Shown here piece after piece: positions 2,121-36,105 of a stretch of DNA of 64,000 nt. Source of the DNA: Deltaproteobacteria bacterium (GTDB taxonomy: Bacteria; Desulfobacterota; Syntrophia; Syntrophales; JAFGHS01). The stretch is from positions 676 through 64,675 of the forward strand of contig JAFGHS010000140.1 of the NCBI GenBank assembly GCA_016930075.1. The letters are read 5' to 3'. Every line of letters begins with the position of its first letter. Within the stretch, counting starts at the first letter, position 1. The position numbers and the translations under genes were made by a program. Under the pieces are notes generated by a model. It ran no database searches. It saw only the letters and a program-made list of their open reading frames with translations, and had not been told where the DNA came from.

Positions 2121-3689
2121 CTATCTGGCAAAATCCGAAAACCGGGTTTCCCGAATCACAGTGACCTTGATTTGACCAGGATAAGTCATTTCCGCTTCAA
2201 TCTTCTTTACGATATCCTTGCAAAGCATAACGGCATCGTTGTCCGAGATCTTTTCATTCTCCACAAGGATTCTGATTTCACGGCCGGCCTGAATGGCAAA
2301 ACACTTATCCACGCCCTTAAAGGAGTTAGCAATGGTTTCGAGCCCTTCCAGGCGCTTCACATAAGTCTCAAGCATCTCTCTGCGGGCACCGGGACGGGCA
2401 GCGGACAGCGTGTCGGCCGTCTGCACCAAAACCCCCAAAAGGGAATTTGTCCGGCTGTCCTCATGGTGCGTCTGGATGGCCTGGACAATCCTCGGCGATT
2501 CACCAAAACGACGGGCATAATCGGCGCCGATCTCCGCATGGGTTCCCTCAATCTTAAAATCGACGGCCTTTCCGATATCATGAAGCAGCCCCGCCCTCTT
2601 GGCTTCCTTGATGTTCATCTTCAATTCCGCAGCCATGATACCCATGAGATGCGCCACTTCTATGGAGTGTTGCAGGACATTCTGGGAAAAACTCGTTCGG
2701 AATTTCAAACTGCCTATAAGGGTGATGATTTCCGGATGAATGTCATGAACCCCCAGATCGAAAGAGACTCGCTCACCCGTTTCCCGGATGATGGTATCAA
2801 CTTCCTCTTTGGCCTTTTTGACTATTTCTTCGATACGCCCCGGATGGATCCTCCCGTCCGTTATCAATCGCTCCATGGAGATTCTTGCCACTTCCCGTCT
2901 GATGGGATCGAAACTGGACAGGACAACCGCTTCCGGCGTGTCGTCGACAATCAGGTCTATTCCTGTCGCAGCCTCAATGGCCCGGATGTTCCTGCCTTCC
3001 CGGCCGATAATCCGGCCTTTCATTTCATCGCTGGGCAGATTGACGACCGATACCGTATTTTCCACGACGAAATCGCCTGCATAGCGCTGAATAGCATAGG
3101 CAATAATCTCCTGGGATTTTTTATCCGCCGTCCGTTTGGCTTCATCCTCGATCTTGCGTATGGTAAGCGCCGCGTCATGCTTTGCGGCCGTTTCCATGGT
3201 TGCCATCAGCTGCGCCTTTGCTTCCTCCTGAGACATGCCGGCAACCCTTTCCAGCAGTTCTTTTTGTTCTTCAATCATCCGGTTTATCTTGTCATTTTTT
3301 TCGTTAAGTTGATTTTCCTTGTTGATGAGGCCTTTTTCTCTATTGTCAAAAGCCGCCTCTTTCTGAGACAATACTTCACTTCTTTTTTCCAGATTTTCCT
3401 CTTTTGAGCGAATTCTTTTTTCTATAGCATCAAATTCCTGTTTTTTATCGGCCGAGTCTTTTTCAAACTCTGTTTTTATCTTGAGAAGACTTTCCTTTGC
3501 TTGAAGCATGGCTTCTTTTTTGATGGTTTCCGCTTCCTTTTTGGATTCATCAATGATCCTCGCAGAGAGGCTTTCCGACGACTCCAATTTCTTTCTCGAC
3601 ACTCTCTGTTTGATAATGTAACCTAACACCACACCAATAACCATGGAACCCATGATCATCCAGATGGTCATCATTATTGTATATGTCAA
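2121..3689 (-). CDS. rny: ribonuclease Y
   Basis: 522 aa: N-terminal TM helix, E/K coiled coil, KH motif [14 protein letters not shown] motif LLHDIGK. TTG start after GGGGG. Confidence 0.95.
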
Positions 3690-5984: not shown

Positions 5985-6094
5985 GATTCTCGTCCGGTGC
6001 AATCTGTTAAAATATTATTGATGTAAATCTGCTAACATATTCGGTCGATTTCCGCAAAAGAGAAATTTCATTTGTTCCGACGCGCTCATCCATA

Positions 6095-6123
6095 TTGCCC
6101 TTATGATAATCTTTTGATATACT
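6095..6123 (+). promoter_or_regulatory. candidate sigma70-type promoter for paaK
   Basis: TTGCCC (6095-6100), 17-nt spacer, TATACT (6118-6123), about 27 nt upstream of the paaK ATG. Confidence 0.4.
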
Positions 6124-6149
6124 CACAACAAAAAAGGGAGGCATTATCC

Positions 6150-7457
6150 ATGATCTATAATGAGGATTTCGAGACACTACCCCGTGAAGTACTGGAAACC
6201 TTGCAGGTCAGACGGTTGCAGCAGGTTTTGCAACGGGCTTATCACACCGTGGGTTTTTATAAAAAGACCTTCGATAAAGCGGGCATCCGGCCGGATGACA
6301 TTAAGAGCCTTGCCGACATTGGCCGTGTCCCTTTTACAACAAAACAGGATATTGTGGATAATTACCCCTTCGGTCTGTTCGCCGTGCCCATGAGCAATAT
6401 CGTCAGGCTCCACGCCTCATCCGGGATGAAAGGCCGCGCCACGGTTGTGGGATACACGAAGCGCGACATCGAAACCTGGTCAGAACTCATGACAAGATGC
6501 TTTGTCGCCGCCGGTTTGACGAAGAACGACATCATCCTTAATGCCTTCAGCTACGGCCTTTTTACGGGCGGCCTCGGCGTCCATTACGGCGCTGAAAAAC
6601 TGGGAGCCAGCGTCATACCCACATCAGGCGGAAATACCAAGCGGCAACTGATGATTCTCCAGGATTTCGGGCCGACAGCCATTTGCTGCACTCCATCCTA
6701 TGCTCTCACTCTGGCCGCGCAAGGTCGGGAAATGGGCGTCGATCTCAAAGCCCTGAAACTGCGAGTCGGCATCTTCGGCGGGGAGCCGTGGTCCGACAAG
6801 ATACGCCAGGCAATTGAAGACGCCTTCGGCATCAAGGCATTAGACCTCTATGGCATGACGGAAGTCATGGGCCCCGGCGTCTCCATCGAGTGCATCGAAG
6901 GCCGCAAGGGAATGCATGTTTTCGAAGATCACTTCATTGTCGAGATGGTTCATCCGGAAACAGGCGCCATTCTGCCCCCCGGCGAACAAGGCGAACTGGT
7001 TTTCACAACATTGACGAAAGAGGCTTTCCCCCTCATCCGTTACAGAACGAGGGACCTGTCGCGTTTCATTATAGAGCCCTGCCGATGCGGCCGGAGCCAC
7101 ATCCGCATTGACCGCATCAAGGGCCGCAGCGACGACGCCATCAGCATCCGGGGCGTAAACGTCTTCCCTGCCCAGATCGAGTCCGTGCTCACAGGCATAA
7201 AAGAACTTGAACCCAAATACCGGCTCATCGTAGACAGGGCAGGCACCATGGATACCCTGGAAATCCAGGTAGAAGTGAATGAAAAAATCTTTTCCGACTC
7301 CGGCGAGGTTAGGGTTCTGCAGAATATCGAACGGCGGATCGCCAAGGACATGAAGGACTACCTCGGCATTTCCGCAAAGATCAAACTGGTGGAGCCGAAT
7401 TCGCTTCCGCTTGCCGAAGGGAAAACAGCCCAGGTTCTCGATAAAAGACAAATCTGA
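6150..7457 (+). CDS. paaK: phenylacetate--CoA ligase family protein
   Basis: 435 aa from the ATG after AAGGGAGG. PaaK/F390-synthetase-like adenylate-forming enzyme ([19 protein letters not shown]...). Confidence 0.9.
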
Positions 7458-7494
7458 CAGACGGATCATGATATGAAAGGGAGGAAACGACCAT

Positions 7495-7926
7495 ATGAAA
7501 GTTGAACAGTTATCGATATTCCTGGAAAATAAGCCGGGAACCCTTGAGCACGCAACCAGAATCCTCAAAGATGCAGGCATCAATATCCGAACATTATCTC
7601 TTGCCGACACATCGGATTTCGGCATTTTGCGCCTCATCGTTAATGACGTTGAGGCCGCGAAAGCGATTCTCAAACAAAACGGCTTTACCGTCAGCCGCAC
7701 GACCGTCGTCGCCGTTGAGGTTCCCGATCGGCCGGGCGGACTCCACAGCATTATGGAGGTTATCGCCAAACAGAACATTAATGTCGATTATCTATACGCC
7801 TTCGTGGAAAAAAGCGGAGAAAATGCCGTCATCATCTTTCGATTCAGCGATCCCGATGCCGCCATCGATGTCCTGCAAAAAAATAACTTCACCGTCATCT
7901 CCGGCGAAAAGTTGTATTCGTTTTGA
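7495..7926 (+). CDS. ACT domain-containing protein
   Basis: 143 aa with two ACT repeats ([12 protein letters not shown]..., [12 protein letters not shown]...). Typical partner gene downstream of paaK. Confidence 0.85.
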
Positions 7927-7992
7927 TCGAGCGCTCGATTTGCAAGATGTAAAAAATTCCGTTAAGGACTTTTTCTTTTACGAATTTTCAGA

Positions 7993-8021
7993 TTGACATT
8001 ATCTTAAAAGAAAATTAATAA
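7993..8021 (+). promoter_or_regulatory. candidate sigma70-type promoter of the Phe leader transcript
   Basis: TTGACA (7993-7998), 17-nt spacer, TAATAA (8016-8021). Confidence 0.45.
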
Positions 8022-8073
8022 GGTTCCTCAAGATAAACCGGTTGTGAAAGAATAAACCGTCAGAAAGAACGTC

Positions 8074-8184
8074 ATGGGAAAAGGATACTCTGAAATTATG
8101 TCAGGCGGACACAAGCAAAGCAGCTTGGCAAAAGACAAAGGTTTTTTTGGCTTTTTCTTTTTTAGAAGCAGTCCGCCTGGATAG
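8074..8184 (+). CDS. Phe-rich leader peptide (pheL-like), 36 aa
   Basis: Encodes MGKGYSEIMSGGHKQSSLAKDKGFFGFFFFRSSPPG, with 6 Phe codons in 7 at 8143-8163. Alternative ATG at 8098. A terminator lies between it and the DAHPS-PDT gene. Confidence 0.5.
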   Translation: MGKGYSEIMSGGHKQSSLAKDKGFFGFFFFRSSPPG

Positions 8185-8246
8185 CTGATCGTTTTAAAAA
8201 GCAATCCCGGGTGGACGCAGACGCCGCCCGGGGTGAAGAATGTTTG

Positions 8247-8282
8247 AAACCCCGAGGAAATCACCTTGGGGTTTTTTATTTT
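8247..8282 (+). terminator. intrinsic terminator (attenuator) upstream of DAHPS-PDT gene
   Basis: AAACCCCGAGG (8247-8257) pairs with CCTTGGGGTTT (8264-8274, one G-U), followed by a T-run at 8272-8277. It lies 30 nt before the GTG at 8312. Confidence 0.6.
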
Positions 8283-8311
8283 GTAAATGAAACAATGAAG
8301 GAGGATGTGTC

Positions 8312-10210
8312 GTGATTCTTGTTTTGAAGCAGGGGATCAGCCCCGACGAGAAAGAGCAATTAATGGACTTGCTGCGTTCGGAAAACTGCCGGATCAAAGA
8401 GATCGAAGGCGTTGAGGAAACCATTCTCGGCATCGTGGGAACAATTCAAAAAGATATCCGCTACTTTGAAACCCTTCCCGGGGTGGCCAAGGTGCTCCCT
8501 GTATCCAAGGGCTACAAGCTGGTGAGCCGTGAAATGCACCCGTCCGACTCGGTGATCAGGGTGGGGGATGTGTCCATCGGCGGCGACCGGCTCGTCGTGA
8601 TTGCCGGGCCCTGTGGCGTGGAAGACCGGAAGCGAACCCTCGACATTGCCCGGGTCGTGCGTCGTTATGGGGCCGTCCTTTTCCGGGGCGGCGCCTTTAA
8701 GCCCCGGACGTCTCCTTACGCTTTCCAGGGTTTGGGCGAAGACGGGCTCAAAATCCTTTCGGAGGTCCGGGAAGAAACGGGCATGGGAATCGTCACCGAA
8801 ATGACTTCAACCGGCCAGGCGGACTTGATGATGAAGTATGTGGACGTCGTTCAAATCGGGGCTCGCAACATGCAGAATTTTGAACTGCTCAAATGCGTGG
8901 GACGCATCGGCAAACCCGTCCTTCTCAAGCGGGGCCTTTCGGCCACCATCGAGGAATGGCTCATGTCCGCCGAATACATTCTTTCCGAAGGAAATGACCA
9001 GGTCATTCTGTGCGAGCGGGGCATTCGCACCTTTGAGCGTTACACCCGGAACACCCTCGATCTCACCGCCGTTCCCGTCATTAAGAAGCTCACACACCTT
9101 CCCATCATCGTTGACCCGAGCCATGCAACGGGCATTCGCGAAAAAGTGAGCCCCATGGCCCGTGCATCCATCGCTGCCGGCGCCGACGGGCTTATTATCG
9201 AAGTCCACACAGAACCCGATAAGGCGCTCTCCGACGGCCCTCAAAGCCTCTACCCGGAACAATTTGAAAAGCTCATGCGGGACCTCTATGTCATCGCTCC
9301 CGTTGTCGGCAAGCAACTTGATTACACCTACCTGGAAAAGGCTGCCGTTATGAAGAAGCGCGGCGGGGCAACCAGGCTTCCGCCCAGGGTCGTCTATACG
9401 GGTGTTTCCGGTTCATTCAGCCACAAAGCCTCCGAACAATTCTTCGGCACCGACATTCCCTGCCGGACATGCTCATCCTCCAGAGAAATATTTGATGCCG
9501 TTCAAAACGAAGAGGGCGCCCTGGGGATCATTCCCGTTGAAAACAGCCTGACGGGGAGCTTTCATGAGAACTACGATCTCCTGCTGGAATACGATCTCAA
9601 GATTGTGGGTGAACTGACTTTGAAGAGCGTTCACAACCTCATTGGATTCAAAGGCGCCGCCATGAACAGCATTCAAAAAGTCTATGCTCATCCGCAGGTC
9701 TTTCAGCAATGCAGAGAATTTCTGGCCAAATACCCTCAGTGGGATGTCGTGGCGGTTCAGGATTCCGCAACGGCCGTCCGGAGGGTCAAGGAAAACAATG
9801 ACCCCGTTGAAGCGGCCATTGCAGGAAAAGACATGGCGGAACTGTATCAAATGACCCTGCTCAAGGAAGGTATTGAAACCAACCCCCGGAATTTCAACCG
9901 CTTCGTCGTCATTTCCAGGACGCCTTTTCTGGACGGTCCAAACAACAAATCATCGCTGATCTATTCCGTCGGCAACAAACCAGGATCTCTATACGCAACA
10001 TTGAAGATATTTGCCGAAAACAACATCAATCTGGTCAAGCTGGAATCCCGCCCCCGGCAGGACAAGCCTTGGGAATATCTCTTCTATGCAGACGTAGAGA
10101 TAGACATCTGCCATAACGAGCATCGACACATCCTGGAGGGCCTGAAAGAAAAAACCGAATTTTTCAAACTGCTGGGCTGTTATCGACGGGGGTTTGAACT
10201 GGATTCCTGA
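8312..10210 (+). CDS. fusion protein: regulatory FL domain + type I-beta 3-deoxy-7-phosphoheptulonate synthase + prephenate dehydratase/ACT
   Basis: 632 aa. N-terminal ~70-aa ferredoxin-like domain, DAHPS core ([30 protein letters not shown]), then PDT ([10 protein letters not shown]...) and ACT ([10 protein letters not shown]...LESRP). GTG start after AAGGAGG. Confidence 0.9.
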
Positions 10211-10422
10211 CCACCTTCTGGCGCCCGTAATTCGTCCGCGTTTCCTTCTTGACAAGGCCAAAATCAAGGCGATTGCCGACGACGCCGGGGGTAACGCCTC
10301 CGAAATTGGGACGGTTCTATTTAATTCTGTGGAAAAAACAGACCCAGGCCCAATACGGATCCATTACCGATCCTACCTATCCCCTTAACGATTTCCTGCC
10401 TGATGCGCGCGTATCGGCAAGT

Positions 10423-11202
10423 CTACCTTTTAAGCGGCCCCCCCGACATAAAGCGCGCTTGAAATCGCCGCATTCCCTGAAGCCAGCGATCATAATCGGC
10501 CGTCTTTCTCTGCATGTAAGTCTTTACCTCCGGATGGGGCAATATCAGGAATTCTTCCTTTCTTAACCCCTCGATCACGGCCTCGGCCAGTTGCTCCGGT
10601 TCCATCAGGCCGTCAACGGCGGCCACGCCGCCGTCCGGTCCGGCCATGGCTGTGCGAACGGCCTGGGGGCACAGGGCGAACACCTTGATGCCCTCATCAC
10701 CGTATGTGATCGAGAGATTTTCAGCCAATCCCACGGCGGCATGTTTGGTCACGGAATAGGGTAAAGAGCCGATCTGGCTCAAGAGTCCTGCCGCGGATGA
10801 TGTAATCATAATCGCCCCGCCGCCCCGCTTGATCATTCCCGGAATCGCCGCCCTGCCGACAAAGACATGGGCCAGAACGTTGACTTCCCAGATGCGCTGC
10901 CACTCGTCATTCGGACATTCCACGCCGCCGACGGCAATGATGCCGGCATTGGAGCAGATGAGATCGACGGCACCATAGGTCTCTTCCGTAAAGCGGACCA
11001 GCCGGATCACATCCTCTTCCCTGCTGACATCACATAAGAGAGCCGCACCCTTAATTTCTTCAGCAACGGCCTTGGCCGCAACCTCATTAATATCCGCTAC
11101 CACAACGGCTTTAGCGCCTTCTTTGGCGAACCGCCGACATAAAGCCGCGCCGATTCCCAGGGCGCCGCCTGTTACAACCACTACTTTACCCGCAATATCC
11201 AT
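10423..11202 (-). CDS. SDR family oxidoreductase
   Basis: TGGALGIG NAD(P)-binding motif and YSVTKHA catalytic motif. ATG at 11202 preceded by AAGGAGA (the track start at 11220 is GTG inside the RBS region). Confidence 0.9.
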   Translation of the reverse strand: MDIAGKVVVVTGGALGIGAALCRRFAKEGAKAVVVADINEVAAKAVAEEIKGAALLCDVSREEDVIRLVRFTEETYGAVDLICSNAGIIAVGGVECPNDEWQRIWEVNVLAHVFVGRAAIPGMIKRGGGAIMITSSAAGLLSQIGSLPYSVTKHAAVGLAENLSITYGDEGIKVFALCPQAVRTAMAGPDGGVAAVDGLMEPEQLAEAVIEGLRKEEFLILPHPEVKTYMQRKTADYDRWLQGMRRFQARFMSGGPLKR

Positions 11203-35595: not shown

Positions 35596-36105
35596 TTACA
35601 CCGCTTTGATGGGAATCTTTGTTCCCTTGACCTTGGCTTCTTCCGTTTTTGGAAGTGTAATGGTCAAAACGCCGTTTTTATAGACCGCTTCCGCTTTCTT
35701 CGTATCTACTCGTTCCGGCAGGGCAATGACGCGGTTAAAAGAGCCGTAGCTGCTTTCCATGTGGTAATAGTCGCCGCTCTTGTTTTCTTTTTCCTCCTTT
35801 TTTTCACCTTTGATGGTCAGCCGGTCTTCCAACAGATTAATTTCCACATCCTTTTCGTCCATGCCGGGAAGTTCCGCTTTTATCAGAATCTCGTTGTCGT
35901 TTTCTTTTATGTCAATTGAAGGTGAGAAGGTTTTAAAGCGGTCGCTTCCAAAGCCGAACGGCGCCACATCGAAATCCCGGAAAAAATCATCAAACAACTG
36001 ATTCACTTCCCGCTGGAGAGAATGATAAGGCGGCTCCTCCTCGCGGTTGATGGGCAACCCCGTTCTTCTCCAGATTGAGGGTACAAGATCTGTAATATTC
36101 ATCAT
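35596..36105 (-). CDS. Hsp20/alpha-crystallin family small heat-shock protein
   Basis: 169 aa; alpha-crystallin domain (...PSIDIKENDNEILIKAELPGMDEKDVEI...GVLTITLPK). Confidence 0.9.
   Translation of the reverse strand: MMNITDLVPSIWRRTGLPINREEEPPYHSLQREVNQLFDDFFRDFDVAPFGFGSDRFKTFSPSIDIKENDNEILIKAELPGMDEKDVEINLLEDRLTIKGEKKEEKENKSGDYYHMESSYGSFNRVIALPERVDTKKAEAVYKNGVLTITLPKTEEAKVKGTKIPIKAV

Follow-up and report, generated by a model that had tools for sequence, protein, structure and literature searches.

To our knowledge, transcription attenuation by leader peptides has been worked out almost wholly in Gammaproteobacteria and a few Actinobacteria. Among the closest described systems, read-through at pheL-pheA and pheM-pheST of Escherichia coli depends on ribosome stalling when phenylalanyl-tRNA (Phe-tRNA) is low (PMC11802643, PMC3082878), and the his leader alternates between AB/CD/EF pairings, which lead to termination, and BC/DE pairings, which lead to read-through (PMC10989985). 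In Corynebacterium glutamicum, a Phe-Tyr-Phe leader precedes the 3-deoxy-D-arabino-heptulosonate 7-phosphate (DAHP) synthase operon aroR-aroF and responds to Phe limitation, according to the account of Neshat et al. (2014) given in PMC11802643. A possible pheL in Desulfobacterium autotrophicum is mentioned in one line by Gurvich et al. (2011), with no structure, conservation analysis or mechanism in the accessible part of that text, and our literature searches returned no other prior mention of such a leader. Rodionov et al. (2004), on delta-proteobacterial regulons, contains nothing on attenuators of aromatic genes, and Naville and Gautheret (2010) and Korolev et al. (2016) contain nothing specific to the element considered here.

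Here we analyze a leader in a 64,000-nucleotide (nt) stretch of contig JAFGHS010000140.1 from a Deltaproteobacteria bacterium (Desulfobacterota, Syntrophales); this whole stretch is called the window, and all unlabeled positions refer to it. The leader stands upstream of a gene (8312-10210) whose product fuses DAHP synthase (DAHPS) with prephenate dehydratase (PDT), and it very probably works as a ribosome-mediated transcription attenuator of this gene, with charged tRNA-Phe as the signal that it senses. We favor this reading because the leader open reading frame (ORF) with its aromatic codons is conserved, the geometry of its stop codon is fixed, compensatory changes occur in both alternative folds, and leaders with Trp codons stand before trpE. 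A preliminary description of the locus, made from the sequence alone, had proposed a pheA/pheST-like architecture and had called leader-peptide attenuation little documented in deltaproteobacterial-type genomes, a fair statement apart from the possible pheL of Gurvich et al. (2011).

Leader anatomy and comparison with described leaders

The features of the leader in the window are as follows.

8098..8184, forward strand: leader ORF from the ORF list, 28 amino acids, MSGGHKQSSLAKDKGFFGFFFFRSSPPG, stop codon TAG at 8182-8184
8143..8163, forward strand: putative regulatory codons TTT TTT GGC TTT TTC TTT TTT, six Phe in seven codons
8101..8110, forward strand: segment A, predicted to pair with B when the ribosome is absent; 10-bp A:B helix in the minimum free energy fold
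8171..8180, forward strand: segment B, last codons of the leader ORF; partner A or C; under a ribosome at the stop codon
8204..8217, forward strand: segment C, partner B (predicted first antiterminating helix) or D
8222..8234, forward strand: segment D, partner C (GC hairpin) or E; no T run after D in the window
8246..8257, forward strand: segment E, 5′ arm of the terminator; 8249-8257 alternatively pairs with D at 8227-8234, with A8255 bulged
8264..8282, forward strand: segment F and T tract from the terminator scan; 3′ arm 8264-8275, T tract 8272-8282

The ORF, codons, five helices, conservation, covariation and ribosome geometry reported below are computed results. Every element of the preliminary description was recovered at its stated coordinates. 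The ORF 8074-8184 with its internal ATG at 8098 and the Phe run are both present, the 9-bp inverted repeat (CAGGCGGAC at 8102-8110 and GTCCGCCTG at 8171-8179) extends to 10 bp when the terminal pair U8101-G8180 is added, and the GC hairpin core (8206-8214/8224-8232) lies within a longer stem (8204-8217/8222-8234). The intrinsic terminator between leader ORF and gene was called by the terminator scan at 8246-8275, followed by the T tract 8272-8282. The candidate antiterminator core, CGGGG at 8229-8233 with CCCCG at 8250-8254, is likewise present, and the D:E helix to which it belongs is conserved and covaries. This antiterminator would nevertheless be without a trigger unless a further pairing, B:C, couples the ribosome to the downstream hairpins. 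B:C joins 8171-8180 to 8207-8216 in 10 bp, two of them G-U, with additional pairs between 8168-8169 and 8217-8218, and it involves the most conserved sequence of the element, CCCGGRTGGA in segment C. As part of the attenuator reading, and with the same high probability, we propose a six-segment scheme in which A:B, C:D and E:F would together give termination, and B:C with D:E would give read-through.

The locus resembles E. coli pheL-pheA in that a prephenate dehydratase gene is preceded by a short ORF with a run of Phe codons, with a terminator between leader and gene. It differs from pheL in that the leader has 28 amino acids rather than 15, its six-codon tail constitutes segment B and the CCC_UGA ending is absent; from pheA in that six pairing segments replace four; and from the E. 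coli PheA enzyme in that the product includes DAHP synthase and is without chorismate mutase. The Rfam model Phe_leader gave no match at E-values up to 10 over positions 7000-11000 of the window. Of the pheA/pheST-like architecture proposed earlier, the Phe leader-peptide attenuator is supported, but the topology is not of the four-segment pheA type. In its AB/CD/EF versus BC/DE logic the window is closer to hisL of Salmonella and E. coli, although its codons are for Phe rather than His, its segment A lies outside the regulatory codons, and in two thirds of its relatives a T run also stands after C:D, giving tandem terminators. His_leader (RF00514) scored 21.7 bits (E = 2.2) over the C:D and E:F hairpins at 8173-8281, against a gathering score of 49, and a permissive Rfam scan of 7000-11000 returned only sub-threshold matches at chance level (mir-1231, His_leader, anti-hemB). 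No T-box or metabolite riboswitch model matched the region in the window. The likeness to aroR-aroF, compared by function only, lies in an aromatic-codon leader peptide over a DAHP synthase; that system belongs to a different phylum and has a much shorter regulatory codon run. In neither sequence nor structure does the element belong to Phe_leader or His_leader; it represents a clade-specific family of its own.

The features of the window together lie far beyond a chance arrangement. The fold of 8029-8290 has an energy of -91.1 kcal/mol (z = -5.8), which none of 200 shuffles equaled, and all five pairings beat composition-matched shuffles as window duplexes (z from -2.9 to -5.8), among them A:B at -20.4 kcal/mol (z = -5.1), B:C at -21.3 kcal/mol (z = -4.0) and D:E (z = -2.9). 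A stretch with at least six Phe codons in seven occurs only once in the six frames of the 64 kb, where a first-order Markov simulation expects 0.03. Stretches with five Phe codons in seven occur on the forward strand at 35785, 45751 and 55111, within or antisense to long ORFs and with no terminator; considered as attenuators, they were set aside as unrelated on account of this overlap and the missing terminator.

Conservation of the leader in orthologous loci

A protein-based search, taking one genome per species, yielded 80 orthologous loci, of which about 34 are of deltaproteobacterial type. A leader precedes the orthologous gene in 27 of these approximately 34 loci, the window included; this is the co-occurrence of Phe-run ORF and terminator that the preliminary description had proposed to look for. 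The shared element consists of a run of Phe or other aromatic codons, a tail of 6-7 codons, a stop codon, two GC hairpins and a terminator. The aromatic runs, for example GFFFFFFRSVHPGH, GRFFFFFRSVHPAV and FFGFFCFFSLDPPG, are followed by the same hairpins, and the typical leader ends as ...FFFF-R-S-x-x-P-x-x-stop. Among the 80 loci, none of the Spirochaete and Firmicute orthologues (L031-L066, L068-L072, L076-L080) has a Phe-rich leader ORF. An Rfam search of 16 leader-less orthologous loci found no known regulator, T-box or riboswitch, and in nine Spirochaete and Firmicute loci searched at the gathering score the only hit was one tRNA, in L063.

Leader ORFs starting with ATG and encoding 20-63 amino acids are found in 26 of the 27 loci, the run holds 4-8 aromatic codons in all 27, and the tail beyond the last aromatic codon measures 6-7 codons in 22. 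The N-terminal sequence of the leader peptide is not conserved across these loci. In some lineages TGG and TAT/TAC stand in place of TTY (FFWFYWF, FFCFWWF, FYFSYF, FFAFWRFF), which indicates that aromatic identity is kept and not richness in U. Like the steady tail length and the excess of in-frame Phe codons given below, this is a sign that the ORF is translated. Close relatives illustrate the pattern: the leader of L203 (86% identical protein) reads MMTGGQNLNGFKQDKTFFCFYFFSSSLPG, and that of L201 (88%) ends in ...GFFSFFAFRTCPPG. For L202 (87%), only 98 nt of upstream sequence are available; no terminator was seen in that short stretch, which is uninformative here. Three of the 27 loci (L015, L026, L073) carry 200-340 nt inserted between the leader terminator and the gene start; the insert of L015 holds inverted repeats such as GTCATTCCGGCGAAGGCCGGAAT, which suggests a small mobile element.

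A covariance model, R1, was built from the 27 orthologous leaders and applied to the window.

8152..8283, forward strand: R1 match, 100.5 bits, E = 3e-21, the only R1 match in the 64-kb window

These data bear on a different account of the locus, in which the attenuator works constitutively or answers to a protein or small molecule, and the Phe-rich ORF, left untranslated, simply follows from a U-rich stretch. Such an account would be in keeping with the strong fold of the region on its own, with the fact that conservation is highest in RNA segments B to F rather than in the N-terminal peptide, and with a -10 element and a Shine-Dalgarno sequence that are only moderate. Against it, the loci share the ORF frame, the start codon and the spacing between run and stop, and Trp and Tyr codons replace Phe codons, up to a WWW version before trpE. 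Phe codons are moreover 2.6 times commoner in the ORF frame than in either other frame (156 versus 59 and 59 over the 27 loci), and Rfam gave no match to a riboswitch, T-box or protein-binding leader. We regard an attenuator indifferent to translation as very unlikely.

Covariation in both alternative folds

Covariation was assessed in two alignments: the 27 orthologous leaders, which form an unbiased set, and a model-based alignment of 98 distinct sequences (A3) that includes 73 metagenome sequences. The latter were chosen by a pattern that partly imposes B and C, and the B:C counts in A3 therefore lean towards pairing, whereas the D:E counts and the 27-sequence set are free of this bias. In the 27 sequences, the terminating helices C:D and E:F are paired in 87.9% of cells, against 64% in slid controls, with 13 pairs changed on both sides; the read-through helices B:C and D:E are paired in 83.9%, against 55-59%, with 8 pairs changed on both sides. 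The corresponding values in A3 are 92.4% against 61-63% for C:D and E:F, with 17 of 24 pairs changed on both sides, and 88.2% against 52-56% for B:C and D:E, with 6 of 19 pairs changed on both sides and the lean in B:C just described. E:F by itself is paired in 94.6% of cells over the 98 sequences, with changes on both sides in all 12 pairs.

B, C and D covary three ways. In A3, the B:C columns 28-78 hold CG in 24 sequences, UA in 24 and UG in 50, with zero mismatches, and the same C column pairs with D (columns 78-101) as GC in 72 and AU in 24. The D:E columns 102-147 hold CG in 44 and UA in 21. Mutually exclusive structures, for which a folding test had been suggested in the preliminary description, are supported to this extent for B:C/C:D and D:E/E:F.

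The conserved tail of the peptide (R-S-V/S-H/P-P...) could also be read as a TnaC-like nascent arrest peptide that senses free phenylalanine within the ribosome and not tRNA charging, and tails do look strikingly alike from order to order (RSVHPxx, RSSPPG, SLDPPG), each with Pro close to its C terminus. However, the residues of the tail change often (H to R, P to L, V to I or A), and in almost every case B:C is preserved by a G-U pair or a compensatory change, so that the conservation of the tail is best explained as a constraint on the RNA. A run of 5-8 cognate codons is furthermore the signature of charge sensing, and arrest at the stop codon would cover B and favor termination, making Phe a repressor by another route. 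Since the replacements preserve the pairing rather than the peptide, we judge an arrest peptide highly improbable.

Ribosome position and the predicted course of attenuation

Under the attenuator reading we infer the following course, in which promoter use, folding order and the reaction to Phe are all inferred. Transcription would start near 8028, and a ribosome would translate the 28-amino-acid leader (8098-8184). With Phe plentiful, the ribosome would reach the TAG codon and cover B, C:D and E:F could form, and the polymerase would terminate at the T tract 8272-8282; with no translation, B would be sequestered by A:B, and termination would likewise follow. With Phe-tRNA scarce, the ribosome would stall in the Phe codons 8143-8163, upstream of B, leaving B free as C emerges. 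B:C would then form first, D would stay unpaired and be available for D:E, and E:F would come too late to prevent read-through into the gene.

The geometry of the 27 loci agrees with this course. When the transcript up to the end of C was folded with the ribosome footprint masked, B:C formed in all 27 loci with the A site on most codons of the aromatic run, the sole exceptions being the final one or two codons in some loci, and with the A site on the stop codon zero B:C pairs were left in 21 of the 27. The stop codon is thus positioned to put the ribosome on B, a further point against an untranslated by-product ORF. Hairpin energies across the 27 loci are balanced, with medians of -23.5 (A:B), -23.4 (B:C), -24.7 (C:D), -14.3 (D:E) and -19.9 kcal/mol (E:F); in the window they are -32.8, -22.8, -23.8, -12.3 and -17.3 kcal/mol, respectively.

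Several observations weigh against the attenuator as drawn, in addition to the lean of the B:C counts in A3. When the full transcript is folded to equilibrium, most loci keep the terminator fold as their minimum despite a stalled ribosome, and D:E is weaker than E:F in the window (-12.3 versus -17.3 kcal/mol). The position of A:B differs between clades and is not conserved in distant loci, although in L203 the helix is kept through G-U-compatible changes. In the window, 33 nt separate A from the Phe run downstream, so that a single stalled ribosome would leave A uncovered, and in a 2-D model A:B is still able to close around the ribosome-masked stretch. Because D resembles B, segment A (8101-8110) is also complementary to D (8222-8234), and in a fold constrained to contain B:C, D is bound by A and not by E. 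Finally, a consensus promoter scan called no promoter in the window, where the -10 element is poor. We speculate that a queued second ribosome might mask segment A.

An argument from a thermodynamic switch was dropped, as full-transcript equilibrium folds with ribosome masks do not flip to the read-through form in most loci; the case is based instead on folding of the partial transcript and on covariation. The decision would accordingly have to be made kinetically: B:C would need to form while D is still untranscribed, and D:E while F is.

The leader might instead serve chiefly another purpose: the terminated transcript of about 250 nt could be a trans-acting small RNA or encode a small peptide with a function of its own, or the leader ORF could above all raise translation of the gene through reinitiation. 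Trans roles of an attenuator RNA and leader peptide are reported for Sinorhizobium trpL in the accessible text of PMC7298713, and PMC4833913 proposed that leader ORFs can act in reinitiation. In the window, however, 128 nt and a strong terminator separate the leader stop codon from the gene start, which makes reinitiation implausible; the N-terminal peptide sequence is not conserved; and a role in trans would supplement attenuation, not replace it. As the main function, any of these seems extremely improbable.

Sister leaders and the wider family

A gene-blind scan of metagenomes with an RNA pattern comprising only the ORF tail and segment C returned at least 120 stretches, at least 82 of them genuine leaders beyond the orthologue set. 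Where the downstream gene was readable, among the matches listed, it encoded a DAHPS-PDT fusion or a stand-alone DAHP synthase, or it belonged to an operon of ACT-pair protein, DAHP synthase and chorismate mutase-PDT (pheA). The possible pheL of D. autotrophicum very likely belongs to this family.

Among the 98 related leaders, a T run follows F in 94 and follows D in 66; the window is among 21 with none after D. We interpret the 66 leaders with a T run after C:D as carrying two tandem terminators, the second of which would be antiterminated by D:E. In L028, the terminator scan calls both terminators.

Leaders of the same type also precede other genes. In L028, a leader divergent from the Phe leader (L028:2400-2534, reverse strand) has three tandem Trp codons (...SWWWRTALEVCPTG, then stop) and two hairpin-plus-T-run terminators, scores 37 bits against the Phe-leader model R1, and precedes trpE (L028:897-2372, reverse strand; Chorismate_bind and Anth_synt_I_N domains). 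L140 holds two leader copies on one strand (2557-2694 and 3398-3535, forward). The first, with a mixture of Trp, Tyr and Phe codons (MNITHNTNWYFSFGRFYFSFRGVHPVL, then stop), precedes aroQ, the gene for a type II 3-dehydroquinase (L140:2737-3324), and the second precedes an ACT-DAHPS-pheA operon. These two sister leaders, WWW before trpE and W/Y/F before aroQ, strengthen the attenuator model.

On balance, we lean towards viewing the window leader as one member of a large, uncatalogued family of "domino" attenuators across Desulfobacterota, placed before DAHPS-PDT, ACT-DAHPS-pheA, aroQ and, in the WWW version, trpE. In about two thirds of its members, one stalled ribosome would disarm two successive terminators, B:C freeing D and D:E blocking the second, a double lock of a kind not known from the classical enterobacterial leaders. 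The mechanism itself is classical, and its understanding is unchanged by the element. What the locus adds is a well-conserved RNA family with more than 100 examples, absent from Rfam 15, in anaerobic sulfate reducers and syntrophs, where it would control the entry step of aromatic amino acid synthesis and the Phe branch. It makes a covariance model for databases possible and provides an annotation rule for small ORFs and premature terminators in genomes of these organisms. The relatives with tandem terminators offer a natural test case for how one sensing event is relayed through several RNA helices.

Putative promoter, probable translation start and neighboring genes

The signals flanking the leader, and the regulated gene, are as follows.

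7993..8021, forward strand: putative sigma-70-type promoter read from the sequence, -35 TTGACA at 7993-7998, 17-nt spacer, weak -10 TAATAA at 8016-8021
8083..8087, forward strand: Shine-Dalgarno-like AAGGA read from the sequence, 10 nt before ATG 8098
8300..10210, forward strand: regulated gene with its ribosome-binding site, GGAGGA at 8300-8305, start codon GTG at 8312, 632 amino acids

The promoter had been pointed out in the preliminary description, and in 24 of the 27 orthologous loci TTGAC[AGT] does occur in the 160 nt that precede the leader start, mostly with TAnnnT 17 nt downstream. The scan made no call because the -10 element of the window lacks a T at position 6, and it is hence the conserved TTGACA that argues for a promoter here. 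Of the two in-frame ATGs, the one at 8074 would give 36 amino acids. The window start codon is most likely ATG 8098, which the alignment places at the start of the L203 leader; in L203, a stop codon stands directly before the ATG, with AGGA upstream and the A arm right after.

Two antisense ORFs (8028-8264 and 8194-8433, reverse strand; 78 and 79 amino acids) overlap the conserved leader and the 5′ end of the DAHPS gene. Neither they nor ORF 8211-8315 had a Pfam match. Because of this absence and the overlap with the conserved element, the two antisense ORFs are most likely spurious, consistent with their earlier treatment as artefacts, and the element explains both calls.

The product of the regulated gene (8312-10210) comprises the Pfam domains DAHP_snth_FXD, DAHP_synth_1, PDT and ACT. 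Homologues 73-88% identical to it occur in Syntrophobacteraceae, Desulfomonile, Desulforhabdus and other deltaproteobacterial metagenome-assembled genomes. The first downstream ORF of at least 120 amino acids lies on the opposite strand, so that the regulated unit appears to be a single gene (monocistronic). Upstream, on the same strand, a gene for a PaaK-like AMP-forming ligase (6072-7457) is followed by one for an ACT-pair protein (7495-7926; Pfam ACT_8). This protein may be a detached regulatory subunit of DAHP synthase. In Desulfobacterales loci, a homologue of it heads a leader-controlled operon (L137:3298-5672), before a DAHP synthase without the FXD domain.

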